Of a DNA stretch of 10,089 nt, positions 1-10,089 are shown piece after piece; the stretch's first letter is position 1; every line of letters begins with the position of its first letter. The stretch is from NCBI GenBank assembly GCA_008080735.1, contig SHMW01000030.1, positions 1 through 10,089 on the forward strand, read 5' to 3'. A program made the position numbers and the translations under genes. The stretch is from Promethearchaeota archaeon. Its GTDB lineage: Archaea; Asgardarchaeota; Lokiarchaeia; Sigyniarchaeales; SOKP01. Below the pieces are notes generated by a model. It saw only the letters and a list, made by a program, of their open reading frames with translations, had not been told where the DNA came from and did no database searches.

Positions 1-211
1 CTGTAATAATAGTTTCTAGGGCACCTATCGCGAGGAATACTAAAGCAAAGAAGAATGCGATAAATACAAATGACAAATATAAAGGTGACTTCACTTTTCT
101 CTCTCTCCATTTGGAGATCATCTTAATTGTGAGATAAATACCCGCGACGATTAATATTAAATAAATAACGAAAAGAGAATAAATTCCTTGATTTATTGGT
201 GTATAAGACAT
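1..211 (-). CDS. Hypothetical polytopic membrane protein, 5' part only (runs off the left edge)
   Basis: Not in the ORF track. Manual translation from ATG at 211 gives MSYTPINQGIYSLFVIYLILIVAGIYLTIKMISKWRERKVKSPLYLSFVFIAFFFALVFLAIGALETIIT..., open to the edge, with two hydrophobic helices separated by a basic loop. A TATA-like TTTATATT lies about 21 nt upstream. Confidence 0.8.
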   Translation of the reverse strand, partial: MSYTPINQGIYSLFVIYLILIVAGIYLTIKMISKWRERKVKSPLYLSFVFIAFFFALVFLAIGALETIIT

Positions 212-231
212 AAGATATATTTCATCGTCTA

Positions 232-250
232 AATATAAATATCTTCTTTC
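232..250 (-). promoter_or_regulatory. Putative archaeal BRE/TATA promoter for a leaderless transcript of the 211 ORF
   Basis: Minus strand reads GAAAGAAGATA-TTTATATT: a purine-rich run followed by a TATA-like box ending about 21 nt before the ATG, with no SD motif. Confidence 0.45.
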
Positions 251-278
251 TTAACTGCATAATAGTAGGGCGTATATT

Positions 279-300
279 AAAAAAGGAAAAAAAAAAGAAA
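279..300 (-). terminator. Oligo-T tract terminator downstream of the symporter
   Basis: aaaaaaggaaaaaaaaaagaaa on + is a long T-rich tract on -, about 20 nt after the symporter stop. Typical of archaeal intrinsic termination. Confidence 0.5.
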
Positions 301-319
301 TTATAATTAAATTTCGGCA

Positions 320-2041
320 TTAGTAGAGTCTATCTCGAGAAACTTCTGGACTGTCTTTTCCTGAGGGAATATTCAATTCTGTTTCAGGTAAGGCTTCTTC
401 TTCCTTCATGACCGAGAAAATCTCATTTAGAAATTCTTTTGGTGGAGCACCATCTTTATCCCTCCATGAAAAGATAACGAATAATACCAAACTGACTGGT
501 ATACATAATATGAATGGATGTGCTGCTTCTAGAGTAAAAGCTATGGGAGATGCGACACCAAATAATTCTAATCTCATCCATTCAATGGAAGCGATATTCC
601 CTAAAGCGTCGGGATAATTGCCAAACCAGAATGCATGTCCTCCTTGATAAAACAGGAAATAATGCAAAATTGAAATTGTTAATGCAATAAGACCACTATA
701 TACTGCTGCCTTCCCAGTTGCTTTTCTCCAAAAGAGTCCTAAAATATAGGGAACTAGAATTACTGATCCCATTGCAGCCCATGCAAACATGCAAATATCA
801 AGTATCGCGCCTAAACCATATATTAAGACAAATATTGAGCCAATAACACCAAATATCACGACTAGAGTAGATACAATTCTTGTTATTTTTAAGGTTTTAT
901 CATCAGAAGCGCCGGTACGTTCTTGATAGACATCAATAGAGTAGCTACTTGCTGCCATCAGAATGATTTTCTCACCCGTTGTCAATGAGGCGGCTGTAAT
1001 CGCTGCCATAACTACTCCCGCAAAAACAGGAGGTAATGTTGCTAACATTAAATAAGGTATAGATGTTCTGTCGCTGGCAGGAAAAAGTCCTGGAGATTCT
1101 ATTTGAAACAGTACTCTTGAGATGGACCCATTAAACCAAGCAAAGAACGCAACTGCGAATGCCCAAGTTGCTGAAATTACTAATCCCCATCGTAATGTCT
1201 TTTTTTCTTTAGCGGTATAAAATCTGGTAATCATTTGTGGTAATCCCCATACTCCGAAACTGGTAACGGCAACCATACCAATTACTGCTAAGCCTGAATT
1301 TCCTGGAAAAGTTGTTAATCCACCCGAATCTAATCCATACGTAGGGTCAGCCTCAATTGCTTGCAAACCCGAAATAAGACCTGGAAATCCTCCAATCGCG
1401 ATCATACCTGCTATAAAAATTACAACAATCCCAACTAAAACGATGATTGCTTCAACAGCATCAGTCAAAATTGCCCCATGACTCCCACCAAAATTCAAGT
1501 ATATAATCGTAATAATGCCAACAATTACAGTAGCGATAATGAAAGTTATTTCATAAGTTGCTGGAATGACCACCGCTAGTAATGTGGCCAAACCCATATA
1601 TATTGATATTACATATATAGTTTGAAAAATTAATTGTACGATGGCGGTAATTGTTTGTAAATTTTTTTCTTGATATCTCTTTCCGAGTAATTGTGGAACC
1701 GTTAAAGAATCAAAATGTTTACCCAAAGCTCTAGTTCTTTTTCCAAAAAATACAAAAGTCATAACAACTCCGACTAATGTATTTAACCCTGCAATCCAGA
1801 GAGTTGCAAGACCCCAATTCCATGAATATCTTCCTCCACCAACAACCATTACAGCGCTAAAATAAGTTACACCAAAAGAGATTCCGAGCAAAATTGGACC
1901 AATAGATCTCCCTGCGACCATAAAATCGCTGAGATTTTTTGTCTTTCGTTTCGCATAGTACCCTGCAATAGCTAGAAATATTAAATAAGCGCCAAATATA
2001 GCCCAAATCGAAAATAGAGATAATGCATCAATATCTGTCAT
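320..2041 (-). CDS. Sodium:solute symporter family (SSS/SLC5, PutP/PanF-like) transporter; substrate possibly an aryl acid or amino acid
   Basis: 573 aa with about 13-14 hydrophobic segments and SSS motifs DFMVAGRSIG, LTVPQLLGKRY, GGSHGAILTD, GLPQMITRFY, AASLTT and LGLFWRKATGKAA. SD-like AAGGAGAGG upstream. Substrate is inferred from context only. Confidence 0.92.
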   Translation of the reverse strand: MTDIDALSLFSIWAIFGAYLIFLAIAGYYAKRKTKNLSDFMVAGRSIGPILLGISFGVTYFSAVMVVGGGRYSWNWGLATLWIAGLNTLVGVVMTFVFFGKRTRALGKHFDSLTVPQLLGKRYQEKNLQTITAIVQLIFQTIYVISIYMGLATLLAVVIPATYEITFIIATVIVGIITIIYLNFGGSHGAILTDAVEAIIVLVGIVVIFIAGMIAIGGFPGLISGLQAIEADPTYGLDSGGLTTFPGNSGLAVIGMVAVTSFGVWGLPQMITRFYTAKEKKTLRWGLVISATWAFAVAFFAWFNGSISRVLFQIESPGLFPASDRTSIPYLMLATLPPVFAGVVMAAITAASLTTGEKIILMAASSYSIDVYQERTGASDDKTLKITRIVSTLVVIFGVIGSIFVLIYGLGAILDICMFAWAAMGSVILVPYILGLFWRKATGKAAVYSGLIALTISILHYFLFYQGGHAFWFGNYPDALGNIASIEWMRLELFGVASPIAFTLEAAHPFILCIPVSLVLFVIFSWRDKDGAPPKEFLNEIFSVMKEEEALPETELNIPSGKDSPEVSRDRLY

Positions 2042-2042
2042 T

Positions 2043-2147
2043 TTATTCTTTCCTCTCCTTGTTTATTTGGTATATAGTATATAATAAAGCAATCAAAACT
2101 CCACCGATACCTAGGCCAATTCCAAGCCAAATTGTCCAATCAAACAT
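2043..2147 (-). CDS. Small single-TM symporter accessory peptide (34 aa)
   Basis: Manual translation MFDWTIWLGIGLGIGGVLIALLYTIYQINKERKE*. One hydrophobic helix plus a charged tail. The stop lies 1 nt before the symporter ATG, and a GTGA motif sits upstream of its own ATG. Confidence 0.75.
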   Translation of the reverse strand: MFDWTIWLGIGLGIGGVLIALLYTIYQINKERKE

Positions 2148-2646
2148 TTTTTTCACTTTTTTTATTTTTTATTTATTGTTTTGATTTTTCCCATTTCATT
2201 CCCATTTAAAAGAATGAAAATTAAACTTACTTATCTATAAACCTATAAAAATGTTTCTTTTTTCTACCTTTTTTGTCGATATATTAACCTAATTTTCAAA
2301 AAAAGTATGATAGATAATTTCAAAAATATTTCCAAAAAAAAATTGGATAGGAAGATTTGATTAAGAAAGAGCGAGATTTTTAATAGAAAATCTGGTAAAA
2401 TATACAAAGAATCTGCGATATTTGATATATCCCACTCTTTTCCCATCAACGCTAAAATTGAGGCTGACCTATTCGGATGAGTAATACATAACTTTGATAA
2501 AATTTCGCAGAAAAAACGCTCTTGTTCTGGCGAAAATTTATCTATTTGAAGAAAAACAAAAAATTTTAATTAATGCATATGTTAATTAGTTTTAATTAAT
2601 GTAGTGAACTAACTAATGCTACTGAAAAAAACGAGTTGTATTTAAT
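2148..2646. promoter_or_regulatory. Divergent promoter region between the symporter operon and the paaK operon
   Basis: About 500 nt AT-rich gap between head-to-head genes. TATA-like TTTATAG occurs twice on - (about 2235-2250) and TTTTAATTAATG twice on + (2564-2575, 2590-2601). Confidence 0.6.
2496..2542. repeat. Imperfect inverted repeat/hairpin upstream of paaK
   Basis: GATAAAATTTCGCAGAA (2496-2512) pairs with TTCTGGCGAAAATTTATC (2525-2542) with one mismatch and one bulge. Confidence 0.6.
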
Positions 2647-3954
2647 ATGGTAAATTATTGGAATAAAGAAGCTGAAACACTCCCTCGCGATGAATTAGAT
2701 GCATTACAAGGAAAGAAATTGCAAAAGCTAGCAAAATATTGCTATGAAAACGTTGAATTTTACAAAAAAAAATTCAAAGAAATTGGTATAATTCCAGACG
2801 ATATTAAAGGAAAAGAAGATATCACCAAATTACCCCTTACTTACAAAGACGACTTACGGGATCATTATCCTTTCGGTCTGAACGCAGTTCCCATGGATCA
2901 AATAATCAGAATTCACGCATCTTCTGGAACAACTGGAAAACCAACGGTAGTTACCTATACCAAAAAGGATATTGATGATTGGACCGAATTAATGGCAAGA
3001 ACGGTTATGGCACCAGGTGTTACCCATAAGGACGTCATTCAGAACGCTTATGGATATGGATTGTTTACGGGTGGTTTAGGATTTCATTATGGTGCTGAAA
3101 AAATTGGCGCATCCGTTATTCCTATTTCTGGTGGCAATACTGAGCGACAATTAATGATAATGCAGGATTTTGGAAGTACTATAATGACTTGTACCCCCAG
3201 TTATGCTCTCTATATTGCGGAATATGCAAAACAAAATAACATAGACGTATCGAAATTAGCTCTCAAAAAGGGAATCTTCGGTGCAGAACCATGGTCGGAT
3301 AATCTCCGTAAAACTATCGAGGATGAGTTAGAAATCGATGCGTATGATATTTATGGACTTTCTGAAATTTATGGTCCTGGAGTATCTGTGGAATGTGAAG
3401 AAAAGAACGGAATGCATATATGGGAAGACTTTTTCATTGTAGAAACACTTGATCAAGAAACTCTTGAACCCGTGCCTCCCGGAGAAGAAGGAATTCTTGC
3501 CTTTACCACCTTAGAAAAAACTGGATTACCACTAATCCGATATATCACAAATGATATCTCGATTTTAAACCGCGAAACATGTACGTGTGGACGGACCCAC
3601 GTGCGGATGAAAAAAGTAACAGGTCGTGCTGATGATATGCTTATAGTGAGAGGTATCAACGTGTTTCCATCCCAAATTGAATCTGCTCTTATGCAGATCC
3701 CAGGAGTTGCGGGGTATTACCAGATTATCATCAATCGAGATATTATTGATTCACTCGAGGTTAAGGTAGAATTAACCGAGGAGACTTTCTCTGATGAAAT
3801 GAAAGTGCTTGAACAATTTAAAAACACGATCGAGGAAAAATTGTATAACATTCTACAAGTAAGAGCTGATGTGGATCTTGTACCCCCAGGTACACTTCCA
3901 CGAACCGAAGGGAAGGCCAAACACGTAATAGATAAGAGATCTAAAAATATTTAA
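2647..3954 (+). CDS. paaK: Phenylacetate-CoA ligase family AMP-forming aryl-CoA ligase
   Basis: 435 aa with [13 protein letters not shown]-loop, [67 protein letters not shown] and a C-terminal GKAK catalytic-Lys region. Confidence 0.95.
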
Positions 3955-3966
3955 GTGATTAGTAAA

Positions 3967-4380
3967 ATGTTAAAGCAAATTAGCGTTTTTTTGGAAAACA
4001 CGCCAGGAATATTAAGTAAATTCACAAAAGTCCTTCAAGATAATGATATAAATATGCGGGCATTAACGGTTGCGGAAACTGCTGATTTTGGTATCTTACG
4101 GATGTTAGTTGATAAAAACGATAAATGTGTGAAAGTTCTTCGTGAGAACAATTATCTTGTATCCATTACAGATGTTATTGCTGTTGATATCCCAGATAAA
4201 CCCGGAGCACTTCATGAGATTGCAAGTATTTTAGGAGAAAATGATATTAATATTGAATACGTTTATAGCACACTTGTAAGGCAGGAAGCCATAATTGTGC
4301 TTAGGGTAGACAATATTGAGAAGGCAACCAAAATTTTAGAAAAAAATGGCGTAAAAGTAGTTAAATCTCAAGAATTTTAA
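3967..4380 (+). CDS. Double-ACT-domain amino-acid-binding protein (BT0572-like), copy 1
   Basis: KQISVFLENTPG...INMRALTVAETADFGILRMLV...AVDIPDKPGAL...INIEYVY, the classic PaaK-associated ACT protein. ATG 3967 is preferred over the track's GTG 3955, which looks like the SD motif. Confidence 0.92.
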   Translation: MLKQISVFLENTPGILSKFTKVLQDNDINMRALTVAETADFGILRMLVDKNDKCVKVLRENNYLVSITDVIAVDIPDKPGALHEIASILGENDINIEYVYSTLVRQEAIIVLRVDNIEKATKILEKNGVKVVKSQEF

Positions 4381-4395
4381 TTTCATCTTTTTTTT
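4381..4395 (+). terminator. Oligo-T terminator after the paaK-ACT1 unit
   Basis: tttcatctttttttt immediately follows the stop codon. Confidence 0.45.
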
Positions 4396-4517
4396 ATTAT
4401 ATATTAAAGTCCAACTTAACACAACAACTATTATATTAAATAAAACATAAAGTAAACTTGATAAATTTTTAGCATTTAACGTAAAATTAAAAAACCGATA
4501 TAGTCTAATACATAAAA

Positions 4518-4940
4518 ATGTTAACTCAGCTAAGTATCTATCTTAAAAACAGGCCCGGACAATTGGCTCGATTCGCAACCTTATTGGTGGAAAATGATAT
4601 AGAAATACGTGCCATAACTGTCGCTGAAAATGAAGAATATGGACTTATCCTACTTCTAGTGGATAAACCAGATAAATGTATTAAATTATTAGAGGAAAAA
4701 GATCATATCTATTCTATTACAAAAGTAATTGCCGTAAAAGTTCTCTCTGATGAAGGACACACCAAAGGCCTCTTAAAAATTTCTAAGGTATTAGGAGAAA
4801 ATAATGTAAATATTGAATATATGTATTCAACTTTGGTGAAAGATGAGTCTCTTCTAATTTTAAGAGTAAATGATAATGAGATGGCAATGGAAGTTCTAAA
4901 GGAAAATAATTTTTTGTTAGAAGAAAGAGAAAAGATTTAG
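4518..4940 (+). CDS. Double-ACT-domain protein, copy 2
   Basis: TQLSIYLKNRPGQL...IEIRAITVAENEEYGLILLLVDKPDK...LGENNVNIEYMYS, colinear with copy 1. Confidence 0.9.
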   Translation: MLTQLSIYLKNRPGQLARFATLLVENDIEIRAITVAENEEYGLILLLVDKPDKCIKLLEEKDHIYSITKVIAVKVLSDEGHTKGLLKISKVLGENNVNIEYMYSTLVKDESLLILRVNDNEMAMEVLKENNFLLEEREKI

Positions 4941-5042
4941 GAGCTTTGATTGTTTTATGATCTATATAAGTAATCTTTTTTAATATATTAAAACGATAAT
5001 ATTTACTTCAAAATTGAATATATAGAAGAGAGTGTTGTGAAA

Positions 5043-5465
5043 ATGAAATATGTGACAGAATTGAGTATATTCTTGCCAAATGAACCTGGAGAATTGGCAG
5101 AATTGTTGAAAGAATTATCTGAAAATGAAATAAACATCCGAGCAATTTCGGTTGTCGAGACAGCTGATTATGGATTAATTCTTTTGTTGGTAGATAAACC
5201 TCAGAAATGCATAGACTATTTAGAGCAAAATAGATATGAATTTACTTCAACTGAGGTAATTGCGATTGAATTTGGAAAGGATGCTTCCGATTTATTCAAC
5301 GTAGCGAATAGCCTCGGAAATAATAAAATTAATATCGATTATCTTTATCTGACCACCACCCCAAAGTATCATTCTGTAATTATCGTCAAAGTGGATGATC
5401 CAGATAAGGCTATTGATGTACTTCAAAAACAAAATTTTGAGTTGATTGAAGGAGAGGATTTATGA
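5043..5465 (+). CDS. Double-ACT-domain protein, copy 3
   Basis: TELSIFLPNEPGEL...INIRAISVVETADYGLILLLVDKP...INIDYLY, colinear with copies 1 and 2. Alternative GTG start at 5037. Confidence 0.9.
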   Translation: MKYVTELSIFLPNEPGELAELLKELSENEINIRAISVVETADYGLILLLVDKPQKCIDYLEQNRYEFTSTEVIAIEFGKDASDLFNVANSLGNNKINIDYLYLTTTPKYHSVIIVKVDDPDKAIDVLQKQNFELIEGEDL

Positions 5466-5620
5466 AAAAATTAATATATCCCTTATTCTCTCCTTGTTTA
5501 TAAACACTCCCTTATAAATGGAAGTAAAATGGAAATTTAACATTAATTTTTTTATTAACTATTCTTTCTGTAATTTAGTATTTGAGCACCTCAATTAGTT
5601 TAATATAATCTTGATTATCA

Positions 5621-6520
5621 ATGGCTTTAGATTTAGATGATAAAGGAAATTTAAGAGCAGCTGAACCAATAGAAGAAAAAGAGAACTATAATGCTCTTTG
5701 TGTGGGAATTGGGGGTACTGGTGTTATTCGAGCCTCAATGATCCTTGGCTGGGCAGCATTACAAGAGGGTTATAAAGTTCGTACCGCAGAAACGCATGGA
5801 ATGAGTCAGAGAGGGGGTTCTGTATCCTCCTATCTTCGGTTTGGCAAGACCCTTGAAGGACCTTTCATGGTGGAAGGAGATTTAGATGTATTGATTGCGT
5901 TTGAAATTTCTGAAGCGTTAAGAAATCTAAACTTTGCCAATAAAGATACATTAATGATAGTCTCAAAAAATGCAGTAATCCCCCCATCGGTTTTGACTCA
6001 TAAAACGCTTAAAATAGATATGACAAAATGCATCGGATGCGGGAATTGCGTTGCACATTGTATTCCAAATCACGTATTTTTTGAATCCCAACAAACACAT
6101 TATTTTACATTGCTAAAAGGTCCTACCCGCAAAGTGATCAACGGCCATACCCGTGTTTTAGAATCGTGTACTGGATGTGCCCAATGTATAATTGATAAAG
6201 TATGTCCTTTTGATGCAATTAAGGCATATAATGAATGGGAATATCCTGAAGTAAAAGCTATGGAGAAAGATATCAAATCAACTTCTCAAAATGTACTCAT
6301 TTTAGATGCTAATAAAATTGCTATAGAGGCGGGAAATATTTTAACTGCGAATGTGGTCTTACTCGGCGTATTAGCGGGTATTAATCGGATTCCGTTGAGT
6401 GTAGAAACTCTTAACAAAACAGTAAAAATGTTCGTTCCTAAAAAAGCTATTGATGTCAATGAAAGAGCATTTAAGGAGGGTTTAAAGATTGGTAAAAACT
6501 TCAAGGAAAAGATATTATGA
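5621..6520 (+). CDS. iorB: Indolepyruvate:ferredoxin oxidoreductase beta subunit with an internal ferredoxin-like domain
   Basis: GIGGTGVI, AETHGMSQRGGSVSSYLRFG, DVLIAFEISEALR, EAGNILTANVVLLG and NERAFKEG are IorB/POR-gamma motifs. Extra segment contains CIGCGNCVAHC and CTGCAQCIIDKVCP. Confidence 0.92.
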   Translation: MALDLDDKGNLRAAEPIEEKENYNALCVGIGGTGVIRASMILGWAALQEGYKVRTAETHGMSQRGGSVSSYLRFGKTLEGPFMVEGDLDVLIAFEISEALRNLNFANKDTLMIVSKNAVIPPSVLTHKTLKIDMTKCIGCGNCVAHCIPNHVFFESQQTHYFTLLKGPTRKVINGHTRVLESCTGCAQCIIDKVCPFDAIKAYNEWEYPEVKAMEKDIKSTSQNVLILDANKIAIEAGNILTANVVLLGVLAGINRIPLSVETLNKTVKMFVPKKAIDVNERAFKEGLKIGKNFKEKIL

Positions 6521-6587
6521 GTTCCCGAAATTCTATTTATAGAGTTATATAATTTAATATTACAATTCGAAATTATTTCAAAAAATA

Positions 6588-8480
6588 TTGGTGTTAAAAT
6601 TGAGTAGACCGTTTTATGCGATGGATGAACCAGATAAAAAGGGGGTAGTATTAGGAAATGAAAGTTTGGCAAGGGGAATATTTGAAGCGGGCATTCAAGT
6701 AGCATCTGGATATCCAGGAACCCCGTCCTCGGAAATAATGGAAACTCTTGCCACAATACATAAATTTTTTCCTAATTTTGATATAGAGTGGAGTACCAAC
6801 GAGGCGGTAGGATTTCAAGTGGCATTAGGCGCTTCAATGTGTAATGCGAGAGGGTTTGCATGTATGAAACACGTCGGCTTAAATGTTGCTTCGGATGCCT
6901 TTATGACCGCCTCCTATGCGGGCGCTCATGGCGGATTTGTGGTTCTTTCAGCCGATGATCCAAACTGTTATTCAAGCCAGAATGAGCAAGATAACCGAAT
7001 CTATGGAATGCACGCACTCTGTCCTGTTTTTGAGGCAATAAATATTCAAGAAGCAAAAGATGTAATAAAATATGCCTTTGATTTTTCAGAACAATTTGAA
7101 AGCTTAGTTATGATGCGAACAACCACACGACTAAACCACGCGAGAGGAGATTTGACCTTAGGCGATATAAAAAAAATAGAGGGTAGAATCTTTAATTTTG
7201 ATAAAGATCGCTCAAGATGGACCTTTTTACCTTCAAATGCAAGGGTCCAAAGGGTAAAGCAGCTTGAACGATACGAAGTTTTAAAGGAATTCTCCAATAA
7301 ATTTCCTTTTACCGAGCTAAATATTCAAGATGGAGCCAAGGTAGGTCTAATATCTTCGGGTGTGCCTTATTCCTATGTGAACGATGCTCTGCTAAAATTA
7401 AATATGGCAGATGATATTTCCACACTTAAATTGGGAATGGTTTTTCCCCAACCAGAAGAATTAATGTTAAAATTATTTGAGAATTCAGAACGAGTAGTTA
7501 TAGTTGAAGAACTGGACCCATTTTTAGAAGATTTTGCGAAAAAGCTAGCTTATGAGAATGATGTAAGAATTGAAATTGCGGGTAAGAAATATTTCCCTCG
7601 AAATGGTGAATTAAATCTCAACAAAGTGATAGCGGGATTAACGGGGTTTTTAGGTATTGATAATCCATTTGTAGATCTACCAGTCAAAACTGAGCATCTG
7701 CATAAAGCTTCTCCAAGACCGCCAGTGTTATGTGCTGGGTGTTCACATCGGAGTACTTTCTATGCATTAAGATTAATGGAAGAAAAGTTGGGTGTAAAAG
7801 CTGTATACTCTTCAGATATTGGATGTTATACGCTCGGGTTTTATAAACCAATTGAAGCTATTGATACGTGTATTTGTATGGGTGCATCTATCGGGATGGC
7901 AAACGGAATTGCGAAATTACATGATGGAACTGTGTTTGCCTTAATTGGAGATTCTACATTTTTCCATACGGGTGTGCCCGGTCTAATAAATGCGGTATAT
8001 AATCAAAATAATGTAAAGGTTATAATATTAGATAATGGCACGACTGCAATGACTGGTGCTCAACCTCATCCCGGAACCGGCGTAAAGATTACTGGTGAAC
8101 CTGGTGTAAAAGTTCCCTTGGAATCAATTTGTAAAGGTGCGGGAATCGATGATGAGCATATGTGGGTTGTTGATTCAAATGAATTGGAACAAACTACCAC
8201 CGCCATTGAAGAGGCTATTAATACAGAAGGACCATGCGTTATAATTTCACGTCATCTATGCACATTACTAGAGAGGAAGGTAAAAAGGGATCTTAAAAGA
8301 ATTCCCGTTGAAATTGACCAAGATAAATGTAATAATTGTATGATTTGTATTAAGAATTTCGGATGTCCAGCAATTACTCTCATAGATAATAGAGAGGTTA
8401 GAGTAGTTAAGGAACAATGTACTGGATGCGGAATGTGTATTGAAATTTGTCCTTTCGATGCAATTCATTCTACTGAATAA
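6588..8480 (+). CDS. iorA: Indolepyruvate:ferredoxin oxidoreductase alpha subunit
   Basis: LGNESLARG, GYPGTPSSEI, EWSTNE, MKHVGLNVASD, DDPNCYSSQNEQDNR, RPPVLCAGCSHR, SDIGCYTLG, TPP-binding GDSTFFHTG...LDN, and a C-terminal 2x[4Fe-4S] domain. The real start may be TTG 6600, which has GGTG upstream. Confidence 0.96.
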   Translation: MVLKLSRPFYAMDEPDKKGVVLGNESLARGIFEAGIQVASGYPGTPSSEIMETLATIHKFFPNFDIEWSTNEAVGFQVALGASMCNARGFACMKHVGLNVASDAFMTASYAGAHGGFVVLSADDPNCYSSQNEQDNRIYGMHALCPVFEAINIQEAKDVIKYAFDFSEQFESLVMMRTTTRLNHARGDLTLGDIKKIEGRIFNFDKDRSRWTFLPSNARVQRVKQLERYEVLKEFSNKFPFTELNIQDGAKVGLISSGVPYSYVNDALLKLNMADDISTLKLGMVFPQPEELMLKLFENSERVVIVEELDPFLEDFAKKLAYENDVRIEIAGKKYFPRNGELNLNKVIAGLTGFLGIDNPFVDLPVKTEHLHKASPRPPVLCAGCSHRSTFYALRLMEEKLGVKAVYSSDIGCYTLGFYKPIEAIDTCICMGASIGMANGIAKLHDGTVFALIGDSTFFHTGVPGLINAVYNQNNVKVIILDNGTTAMTGAQPHPGTGVKITGEPGVKVPLESICKGAGIDDEHMWVVDSNELEQTTTAIEEAINTEGPCVIISRHLCTLLERKVKRDLKRIPVEIDQDKCNNCMICIKNFGCPAITLIDNREVRVVKEQCTGCGMCIEICPFDAIHSTE

Positions 8481-8537
8481 TAACTACTAAGAACTAATAA
8501 AAGTAAGTCGCTTGCACAAAATTCTTGAATATTATGT

Positions 8538-8604
8538 ATTTTTCATTCCCTCTTTTTTCAAAATCGCTCCTAAATGTTCAAATAAGAAAAGAGTAAAAAA
8601 AAGA
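8538..8604. terminator. Convergent oligo-T terminator region between iorA and the downstream membrane-protein gene
   Basis: T tracts on + (about 8538-8558) and A tracts (about 8587-8602, T tracts on -) lie between two convergent stops. Confidence 0.4.
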
Positions 8605-8605
8605 A

Positions 8606-9124
8606 TTAGCTTATTGATTTTGCTCTCGCTTGCCTTGCTTTCTCTGTATTTTCGTTTGTAATATAAAAGCCTATCAAATAACAAATTAAAATGATAAAAA
8701 ACGATGTAAACGCAACCGTATAGAACCATCTCCCTTGATAGTCAATCATCTCCATAATTAACCATTGAAATAGCCACATCACACCACCTCCTATGGTGAC
8801 AAATATCATGTCCCAAGCAGCGTTTAATGCGCTATCTTTTCCTCCTGGTCTCCAGCCCAAATAATAAATAACTGTATTTTCTACAATTTCCCATAAAATT
8901 CCGACAAGAATGGTTAAAAGGAACGCTAGCCACCACGGAAAAAAACCCCCTCCTGGACCAAAAATAAATTCTGGTATCGTTATAAAGAGAGAGAAAAAGA
9001 TAAACGCCGCTATTCCCATATCGATGTGGCCCCAGCTATAGAAATCCCACGGGGAGCGACCTACATAGTCTTGAATATCCCCCACAAAAGGAATATATAC
9101 TTTTTTCTTTTCTTCTTCACTCAT
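8606..9124 (-). CDS. Integral membrane protein, DUF2585/UPF0314-like (H...WExxE...DSxxN..D motifs)
   Basis: About 4 TM helices with DFYSWGHIDMG, ILWEIVEN and GKDSALNAAWD motifs, resembling the DUF2585 pattern as recalled. ATG 9124 is preceded by SD-like AGGTGG; the track's start is GTG 9136. Confidence 0.7.
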   Translation of the reverse strand: MSEEEKKKVYIPFVGDIQDYVGRSPWDFYSWGHIDMGIAAFIFFSLFITIPEFIFGPGGGFFPWWLAFLLTILVGILWEIVENTVIYYLGWRPGGKDSALNAAWDMIFVTIGGGVMWLFQWLIMEMIDYQGRWFYTVAFTSFFIILICYLIGFYITNENTEKARQARAKSIS

Positions 9125-9926
9125 TTTGGTTTCCACCTAAAATAATCTTCAATTTATACTTAAAACTAATGCTTAATATTTATTTCTATTATGATTCCTA
9201 ATAACTCTTTTGGTTAGTATAATTTACCTTTGAAATGGATCTTTAGTGAGATATTTCTTGAATTTTGGGAATAATTAGCTATATTGCTCTAGTTTCTTTG
9301 GAAGGTTGACTCTATGTAAGCACTTGATATAACGCTATTAATTCACTTATGTTAGCTTTCACTAATGAACTGGAATATATTTATTCGTCTTAAATTTCTC
9401 AAAAATGCAGTATAAAATCATTTAGATAGACATAACCTTCCTATTGAACTTTATTCAAGGAAAATGAAAGACCATCACTTCACATAAATTAGATCGTTGA
9501 GAATTGATAATGAACGAGATTTCAGTATTAGATATTAAAATTAGCTATAAATATCAAAGTAATTGGCTCTTATACCTTTTAAATCGAATTTGATTCTCAT
9601 CAAGATCTCAATAAAATCTATCTTAGATTTCTTCTAAACTCAATAAATCGATGTTAATTAGGCAAATGGGTGGATAATCTAAAAAAAATCTCCCTTTCAT
9701 TTCATTTACTCGAAGATCATTTTTTATTTTTTATTAAATCTATGAGCTCTTTCATTCTATATTATTATCTTAAGAAAGTATGGGTAAAATCTAATAAGAA
9801 TGCTAACAAAACCATATCATAACAATATTATTAAAGAAAAGCATAAACACAGCGTTCATAAAATTGACGAAAGATTTATTAATCTAAAAATACATATAAT
9901 GAATTAGAAAAATTTTTTTCGACAGT

Positions 9927-10020
9927 AGTAATGGAATGTTTGTTTTTAGCCATAATTAATTTATTCCTCCACTAATAAATTGTAACGTGCTAATAACTAT
10001 ATTTCAAGCATTCCATTACT
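9927..10020. repeat. Long imperfect inverted repeat/hairpin followed by a T tract
   Basis: AGTAATGGAATG (9927-9938) is the exact reverse complement of CATTCCATTACT (10009-10020). Nested inner arms are TTAGC/GCTAA and AATTTATT/AATAAATT around the loop CCTCCACT. Confidence 0.7.
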
Positions 10021-10089
10021 TTTTTTCTTTTTTCCTTCTGATTGGTTCATAGATTTATTTCTGCGAAGAGATCCTTTACCGATGCGATC

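Follow-up and report, generated by a model that had tools for sequence, protein, structure and literature searches.

2-Oxoacid:ferredoxin oxidoreductases (OFORs) are the main gates through which low-potential electrons enter and leave anaerobic amino-acid and carbon metabolism, and the known forms differ in how one set of seven domains is rearranged or fused. We analyzed a stretch of DNA from a Promethearchaeota archaeon, hereafter the window, which covers bases 1-10,089 of a contig of 40.9 kb (SHMW01000030.1) in a 4.1-Mb metagenome-assembled genome (MAG; GCA_008080735.1) that is 93% complete. An earlier interpretation made from the letters alone (the sequence-only reading) had proposed that the window encodes a 299-amino-acid (aa) IorB, the beta subunit of indolepyruvate:ferredoxin oxidoreductase (IOR), carrying a ferredoxin-like insert in the middle of the subunit at 5996-6238. 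These coordinates correspond exactly to residues 126-206 of the protein, and the POR domain is split around the Fer4 matches. The product of 5621-6520 is thus IorB with a ferredoxin domain nested in the middle of POR, and an arylpyruvate/CoA activity is predicted for it from sequence. IOR enzymes convert aromatic keto-acids and aryl-acyl-CoAs into one another. The features that carry the analysis are as follows.

5621-6520, + strand: iorB, IOR beta subunit (OFOR domain III), 299 aa; POR and TIGR03334 matches, AlphaFold2 model
5996-6238, + strand: inserted ferredoxin-type domain, predicted 2x[4Fe-4S], IorB aa 126-206; alignments, Fer4 matches, Foldseek
6029-6061, + strand: cysteine motif 1 of the insert, C137-x2-C140-x2-C143-x3-C147
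6167-6208, + strand: cysteine motif 2 of the insert, C183-x2-C186-x2-C189-x5-C195-P196
6588-8480, + strand: iorA, IOR alpha subunit, 630 aa, TTG start as listed; TIGR03336, POR_N, TPP_enzyme_C and Fer4 matches
8307-8468, + strand: C-terminal ferredoxin domain of IorA, aa 574-627; Pfam Fer4, with motifs C-x2-C-x2-C-x5-C-P and C-x2-C-x2-C-x3-C-P

We compared the protein with POR and Fer4 profile models, as had been suggested alongside the sequence-only reading. Pfam POR (PF01558) matches IorB with 116.4 bits (cut-off 27.4) in two stretches, the first of which covers aa 31-136 and profile positions 1-115 of 173, while several models of the Fer4 clan exceed their cut-offs in between: Fer4_10 (34.4 bits, cut-off 25.5), Fer4_6 (29.5 bits, cut-off 25), Fer4_7 (28.3 bits, cut-off 27; aa 136-199) and Fer4 (26.7 bits, cut-off 21.1). 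The insert sits between POR profile positions ~113 and 103-107, and in the protein itself IPPSVL begins with residue 120 and EYPEV with residue 207. IorB has cysteines at positions 27, 137, 140, 143, 147, 183, 186, 189 and 195; the eight within the insert form the two motifs exactly as claimed, with 35 residues between C147 and C183. Among NCBIfam models, IOR_beta and its PRK06853 siblings are the best families for IorB by a wide margin. The IOR_beta model itself (TIGR03334) also matches in two stretches and, because the match is split by the insert, reaches only 182.4 bits, below the equivalog cut-off of 205.8. The adjoining IorA reaches its equivalog model TIGR03336 with 717 bits (cut-off 650.9), and at all related loci examined IorB likewise adjoins an IorA.

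In the alignment, the 81-aa insert stands where canonical IorBs have 4-5 residues, between IPP(S/M)(V/I) and EYP. Canonical IorBs are 190-215 aa long, in agreement with the earlier statement that they are shorter and have a short loop at this site. Conservation of the cysteines among homologues had been named as a check on the insert, and all eight are kept in each of the 62 inserted homologues, down to 32% identity. Conservation extends to other residues. G139 and A199 are present in 100% of the homologues, G175 in 98% and N174 in 85%; P149, which follows the C-I of motif 1, and P196 each occur in 54 of the 62, and G141, N142, T184 and G185 are likewise near-invariant. The invariant cysteines, together with these further conserved positions, point to a domain that folds, binds a ligand and is kept under purifying selection. 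The spacing of motif 2 is x5 in the Loki clade and x3 (C-x2-C-x2-C-x3-C-P) in the most divergent members, P0127-P0129 and P0143. Additionally, the insertion point is identical in lineages at 32-47% identity.

We then modeled IorB with AlphaFold2 from a 118-sequence alignment. The model has a mean pLDDT of 90.8 and a pTM of 0.79, and ten-residue blocks over the insert score 82-95. When compared by Foldseek with the Protein Data Bank (PDB), the IorB model matched OorC (3g2e_C and 8ys5_B, TM by target 0.84-0.85). Further matches were to PorC, to the gamma-type chains of OGOR and StOFOR, and to the single-chain, domain III-bearing pyruvate:ferredoxin oxidoreductases (PFORs) 6cin and 1b0p; the PDB copy searched holds no structure of an IOR. 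The insert matched FwdG, a subunit of formylmethanofuran dehydrogenase that holds 2x[4Fe-4S] (7bkb_L, 8rja_L and 5t5i_G; TM by target 0.68-0.78, 28-29% identity); for 7bkb_L and 8rja_L the TM by target is 0.74-0.78 at 28% identity. The alignments run from end to end, pairing insert residues 7-79 with 4-76 of 9sfi_U and residues 7-78 with 66-135 of 7bkb_L, and the spacing between the motifs is the same. The 35-aa linker, which the sequence-only reading had called unusually long, is therefore normal for 80-aa ferredoxins of the FwdG type. In the topology of the model, the insert exits the fold right after beta-5 (residues 111-115) and re-enters before the helix at 211-221. It does so at the C-terminal edge of the parallel sheet, the edge that also bears the GxGGxG loop (G29-G34). 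We conclude that the insert is a complete and selectively maintained di-cluster ferredoxin fold, for which cluster binding is predicted from sequence and model.

This domain is additional to the ferredoxin domain of IorA. The C-terminal eight-cysteine domain is kept in the IorA of the window and in seven of seven other partner IorAs of inserted IorBs. Since every partner examined retains its own domain, the insert is additive and not relocated, and the earlier proposal of an extra 2x[4Fe-4S] motif set beside the IorA clusters holds in all eight. The likeness between the insert and IorA's own ferredoxin domain is at motif level only, with 16 of 28 identities around motif 2. In OFORs, a proximal cluster is expected in the thiamine pyrophosphate (TPP) domain. 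We would thus predict, from the cysteine motifs, five [4Fe-4S] clusters per alpha-beta protomer: the proximal one and two more in IorA, and two in IorB. As a separate observation, one divergent partner IorA (L006, 4119-6008) has a variant second ferredoxin motif, C-x5-C-x2-C-x3-C-P, in place of C-x2-C-x2-C-x3-C-P.

The taxonomic spread of the split architecture, which had likewise been proposed for survey, proved to be narrow: the nested POR and Fer4 arrangement is rare and, as far as it was searched for, found only in Asgard archaea. A word-indexed search of 5.8 billion proteins returned ~115 clusters that share it. Complete inserted members are 283-331 aa long, shorter rows are mostly cut at contig ends, and below the inserted clusters the list drops sharply to canonical IorBs of 206-208 aa. 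In a HMMER search of 1.84 billion representatives at 50% identity, the match was contiguous through the insert only in P0058, P0127, P0128, P0129 and P0143; the other hits, to 99 bits, are canonical IorBs of ~190-215 aa matching in two stretches, or otherwise short or extended forms. Named carriers belong to Promethearchaeota (former Lokiarchaeota), Lokiarchaeia, Hermodarchaeota, Sigynarchaeota, Helarchaeota and Candidatus Sifarchaeum subterraneum, and further contigs with an inserted IorB show Asgard-type neighbors such as Arf/Roc GTPases, Robl_LC7 and RING finger proteins. We also scanned contigs from one genome per prokaryotic species. Among the matches listed, POR was split in 7 of 68 loci, from five named Promethearchaeota/Sifarchaeum MAGs and two "uncultured archaeon" MAGs (72-79% identity to the query), and the remaining loci listed are unrelated ferredoxin-domain proteins. 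A tblastn match on a Selenomonas plasmid that seemed to reach into the insert proved to be a canonical IorB of 192 aa. As far as the searches reach, the nested architecture is confined to one Asgard IorB clade.

Within the phylum of the window, only 27 of 400 genomes gave a full-length inserted match. Five genera of the window's own family are among them; its order adds a second family and one further genome, its class another three families, and other classes two families. A close canonical IorB takes the place of the inserted one in about 65 of the 400 genomes, with a match over residues ~17-124 (44-63% identity). None of the 400 has both an inserted and a close canonical IorB (matches at E < 1e-26), a pattern and not a statistic, as the genomes are related. 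The two forms also meet within the window's genus, where the insert is present in three other species (75-78% identity) and two have the canonical form only. The IorA that accompanies the canonical form in this genus is 50-52% identical to that of the window, whereas the inserted orthologue is 78% identical. These identities indicate that the canonical loci of the genus are a separate lineage, and we rejected on the same grounds the idea that Asgard canonical IorBs are recent losses of the insert. A maximum-likelihood tree built without the insert columns and containing 62 inserted rows showed three changes of state between the inserted and canonical forms. Forcing all 62 inserted rows into one clade gave a log-likelihood 21.7 units above that of the quick free search, and the approximately unbiased (AU) test did not reject this constraint (p 0.68), which is consistent with a single acquisition in Asgard archaea. 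A single origin of the insert in these archaea is thus probable, as judged from the sequences.

Other features of the window make up the gene neighborhood of the inserted enzyme.

2647-3954, + strand: PaaK-like aryl-acid-CoA ligase (AMP-forming); Pfam AMP-binding and AMP-binding_C_2, TIGR02155 at 542 bits
3955-4380, 4518-4940 and 5037-5465, + strand: three tandem ACT-pair proteins; Pfam ACT_8, 58-93 bits
320-2041, - strand: sodium:solute symporter (SSF), divergently transcribed; Pfam SSF, 157 bits

The PaaK-like ligase falls below the TIGR02155 equivalog cut-off of 646 bits. The ACT-pair paralogues, of 141, 140 and 142 aa, lie between this ligase and iorB; related loci mostly have one such gene (L004, L009, L097). 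In all Asgard loci examined, both inserted and canonical, the order is iorB then iorA, and on the Selenomonas plasmid it is iorA-iorB. In the window the two genes are read in different frames. The true start of iorA is uncertain, because an in-frame ATG lies 11 codons beyond the TTG at 6588 (M12) and the homologue alignments begin at about residue 5-8. Located 3' of iorA is an open reading frame (ORF) on the - strand (8606-9136) encoding a hydrophobic 176-aa protein with no Pfam match, and beyond it are ~950 AT-rich bases (GC ~27%) without ORFs of at least 60 aa. At one divergent inserted locus (L004, 2125-2565), a protein of the C_GCAxxG_C_C family, a putative redox-active cysteine protein, is encoded directly 5' of iorB; it is absent from the other inserted loci that we looked at.

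The genome of the window has two more IOR-like pairs, at G000:C34:27430-30013 and G000:C64:11586-15103 (L092, L093). Their beta subunits are canonical (214-217 aa), their IorAs are 36-38% identical to that of the window, and neither pair has PaaK or ACT neighbors. The alpha subunit of the second pair is 690 aa long, lacks a Pfam Fer4 match and has an altered C-terminal cysteine pattern. Between the alpha and beta genes of that pair is an ORF of 207 aa on the opposite strand, which has no Pfam match.

What might the nested domain do? The enzyme would be an indolepyruvate/arylpyruvate:ferredoxin oxidoreductase, otherwise an ordinary IOR, whose beta subunit, the CoA-binding OFOR domain III, appears to have gained a whole clostridial-type ferredoxin domain of 80 aa in the loop that follows its fifth beta-strand. 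The eight invariant cysteines most likely bind two [4Fe-4S] clusters. These clusters would be redox-active and lie within the electron path of the enzyme, where they could extend or branch the chain that runs from TPP through the proximal, medial and distal clusters. The domain would then offer a built-in ferredoxin-like port, letting electrons out in oxidative decarboxylation and in during reductive carboxylation of an aryl-acyl-CoA. On balance, we consider it somewhat probable that the insert is such an electron relay or port, providing two added stepping stones; that it binds clusters, that these are redox-active and where they stand in the chain we infer from sequence, model and analogy.

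Two-cluster ferredoxin folds that have all their ligands are electron-transfer modules. The insert has such a fold with intact ligands, a relay subunit is its closest match, and its host is an Fe-S redox enzyme, all of which suggests that its clusters are redox-active. The architecture is also maintained across several Asgard lineages. As for distance, in the Helicobacter pylori enzyme OorDABC, OorC (domain III) meets OorD and OorB at a ligand site that lies 11.8 A away from the proximal and 13.0 A from the medial cluster (PMC12307629). By these distances, parts of domain III are within tunneling range of the chain.

Several observations weigh against a relay or port. Related Asgard genomes, two of them in the same genus, use a canonical IorB, which indicates that the insert is dispensable for IOR chemistry. 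Motif 2 of the Loki clade has x5 and not x3 spacing. The partner IorAs show no obvious docking patch for the insert, only 7 scattered substitutions and a few short gaps (up to ~4 columns). Next to the inserted loci we found PaaK, ACT proteins, transporters and unrelated genes but no conserved gene for a redox partner, and no fusion of an inserted IorB with IorA or a redox partner was found among proteins of 525-2000 aa at E <= 1e-10, which is weak evidence. The last two results bear on a more specific suggestion of the sequence-only reading, that the insert tethers the electron carrier or wires the enzyme to a particular partner; neither an adjoining partner gene nor a fused form speaks for it. 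In a related proposal, the CoA-binding subunit would present a second, separate port, either docking without ferredoxin to a hydrogenase, formate dehydrogenase or membrane complex, or splitting or merging electron flow between two partners. We regard this as quite unlikely.

A more specific alternative is that the insert serves as an entry port for low-potential electrons in an anabolic enzyme, with the operon of symporter, AMP-forming ligase, ACT sensors and IOR salvaging aryl acids, which would be reductively carboxylated to give aromatic 2-oxoacids. The added clusters would act as the polyferredoxin-like PorE and PorF do for the anabolic pyruvate oxidoreductase (POR) of Methanococcus maripaludis, of which they are described as extra Fe-S proteins (PMC13768988), and the idea refines a relay role without contradicting it. 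Indeed, of the three IOR-like pairs in this genome, only the inserted one is linked to PaaK, ACT proteins and the SSF symporter; PaaK and/or ACT neighbors occur at five of seven divergent inserted loci examined (none at L007 and L008); and methanogens make aromatic amino acids from aryl acids with PaaK and Ior (PMC6737245). However, methanogen and bacterial Ior enzymes encoded next to PaaK and ACT genes have a canonical IorB, as on the Selenomonas plasmid, and thus a PaaK/ACT context does not require the insert. Moreover, the PaaK of the window scores under its equivalog cut-off, and the direction of flux is unreadable from sequence. We hold a dedicated entry port to be fairly unlikely.

The insert could also stand off the electron path, in a structural or regulatory role, by bracing or gating a mobile domain III, or by sensing redox state or oxygen and shutting the enzyme down. 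Canonical enzymes function without it, and in the model it leaves the fold after beta-5 on the same sheet edge as the GxGGxG loop, so it could affect CoA binding or the movement of domain III, for which a closure of 7 A has been described in PFOR (PMC13768988). Sensor or structural Fe-S sites, however, are usually single clusters, whereas a full two-cluster fold with eight invariant ligands, nearest to a relay subunit, is a hallmark of electron transfer, and we consider the structural or regulatory role unlikely. Because all of the data come from MAGs, we also asked whether the insert might have no function at all, as a relic, an error of annotation or assembly, or a mobile element that happens to sit in frame. 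Nothing specific favors these explanations. The same architecture is found in >100 protein clusters from independent assemblies and sources, with invariant cysteines, a confident fold prediction and the same insertion point at 32-47% identity. A relic or artefact is therefore extremely improbable and, given this conservation across sequences, effectively excluded.

Metabolic models of Asgard archaea center on amino-acid fermentation, syntrophic electron disposal and aromatic-acid salvage. If the clusters of the insert form a relay, as we favor, the enzyme would show how OFORs can gain electron ports. If the second, separate port were real, it would mean that the archaea closest to eukaryotes wire a 2-oxoacid oxidoreductase on a new principle. 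Inserted and canonical forms alternate between close species and so offer a natural comparison, and the enzyme is a tractable target for expression, electron paramagnetic resonance (EPR) and cryo-electron microscopy (cryo-EM).

According to the sequence-only reading, no Ior with this architecture was known to be described. For the nested form this claim stands: the form is rare, and we found no description of it in the literature searched. Full-text searches of the literature on IorB and 4Fe-4S clusters, on IOR structure or cryo-EM, and on Asgard or Lokiarchaeota indolepyruvate metabolism returned no paper that mentions the insert, and Asgard genome papers mention ior only in lists of 2-oxoacid oxidoreductases. 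A 2026 review of PFOR diversity covers one- to five-subunit forms and the PorE polyferredoxin, and describes no ferredoxin domain within domain III (PMC13768988). A ferredoxin domain nested in domain III is thus apparently undescribed. The claim is limited by bacterial proteins of similar length that do combine POR and Fer4, one of which, when checked, was a terminal fusion. In the ESM Atlas, Actinomycetota, Pseudomonadota, Myxococcota, Berkelbacteria and Thermoproteota contribute further clusters of 277-327 aa that have both POR and Fer4; the one from Pseudomonadota superposes on the IorB model over 206 residues only. In the Berkelbacteria ORF, POR matches in two stretches spanning aa 4-202 and the cysteine motifs lie at aa 238-290; the segment between the POR stretches (partly X) bears no cysteine motif. 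We therefore ruled it out as an inserted form and count it among the C-terminal gamma-delta fusions of the oxalate-oxidoreductase type. In five genomes searched, none of the twelve full-length POR matches was interrupted, and another two matches were partial.

Compared with known systems, the enzyme of the window is closest to canonical IorAB, as in Pyrococcus furiosus/Thermococcus and the anabolic Ior of methanogens. It shares with them an IorA that passes TIGR03336, adjacent genes, and an IorB in which both halves align and the GxGGxG loop is present; the N-terminal half is ~50-60% identical to the metagenomic canonical proteins P0121-P0126. PaaK and ACT neighbors are likewise found at many archaeal and bacterial canonical ior loci. 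It differs in that its IorB has 299 aa and not ~190-215, has an 81-aa ferredoxin domain in place of a 4-5-residue loop, and scores under the TIGR03334 cut-off, and in the gene order, iorB then iorA. The III+V chain of oxalate oxidoreductase (Moorella thermoacetica, 5c4i_B; NF045790) and the Berkelbacteria protein also combine domain III and a ferredoxin in one chain of similar length (277-327 aa). In such gamma-delta fusions, however, the ferredoxin is C-terminal to domain III and is the sole domain V, whereas in the window it is nested rather than appended after domain III, and IorA has a domain V of its own; the Foldseek TM of the IorB model to 5c4i_B is only 0.30. FwdG and other 80-aa ferredoxins (7bkb_L, 8rja_L, 5t5i_G; 9sfi_U) have the fold, length and inter-motif spacing of the insert, but are free-standing subunits of other enzymes, with no specific orthology to the insert detectable, and motif 2 of the insert has x5 spacing in the Loki clade. 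Lastly, PorE and PorF of M. maripaludis resemble the insert, by their description, as extra Fe-S proteins beyond the standard three OFOR clusters that would supply electrons to reductive carboxylation; they are separate polyferredoxin-like polypeptides, whereas the domain described here is nested in the gamma/domain III subunit itself.

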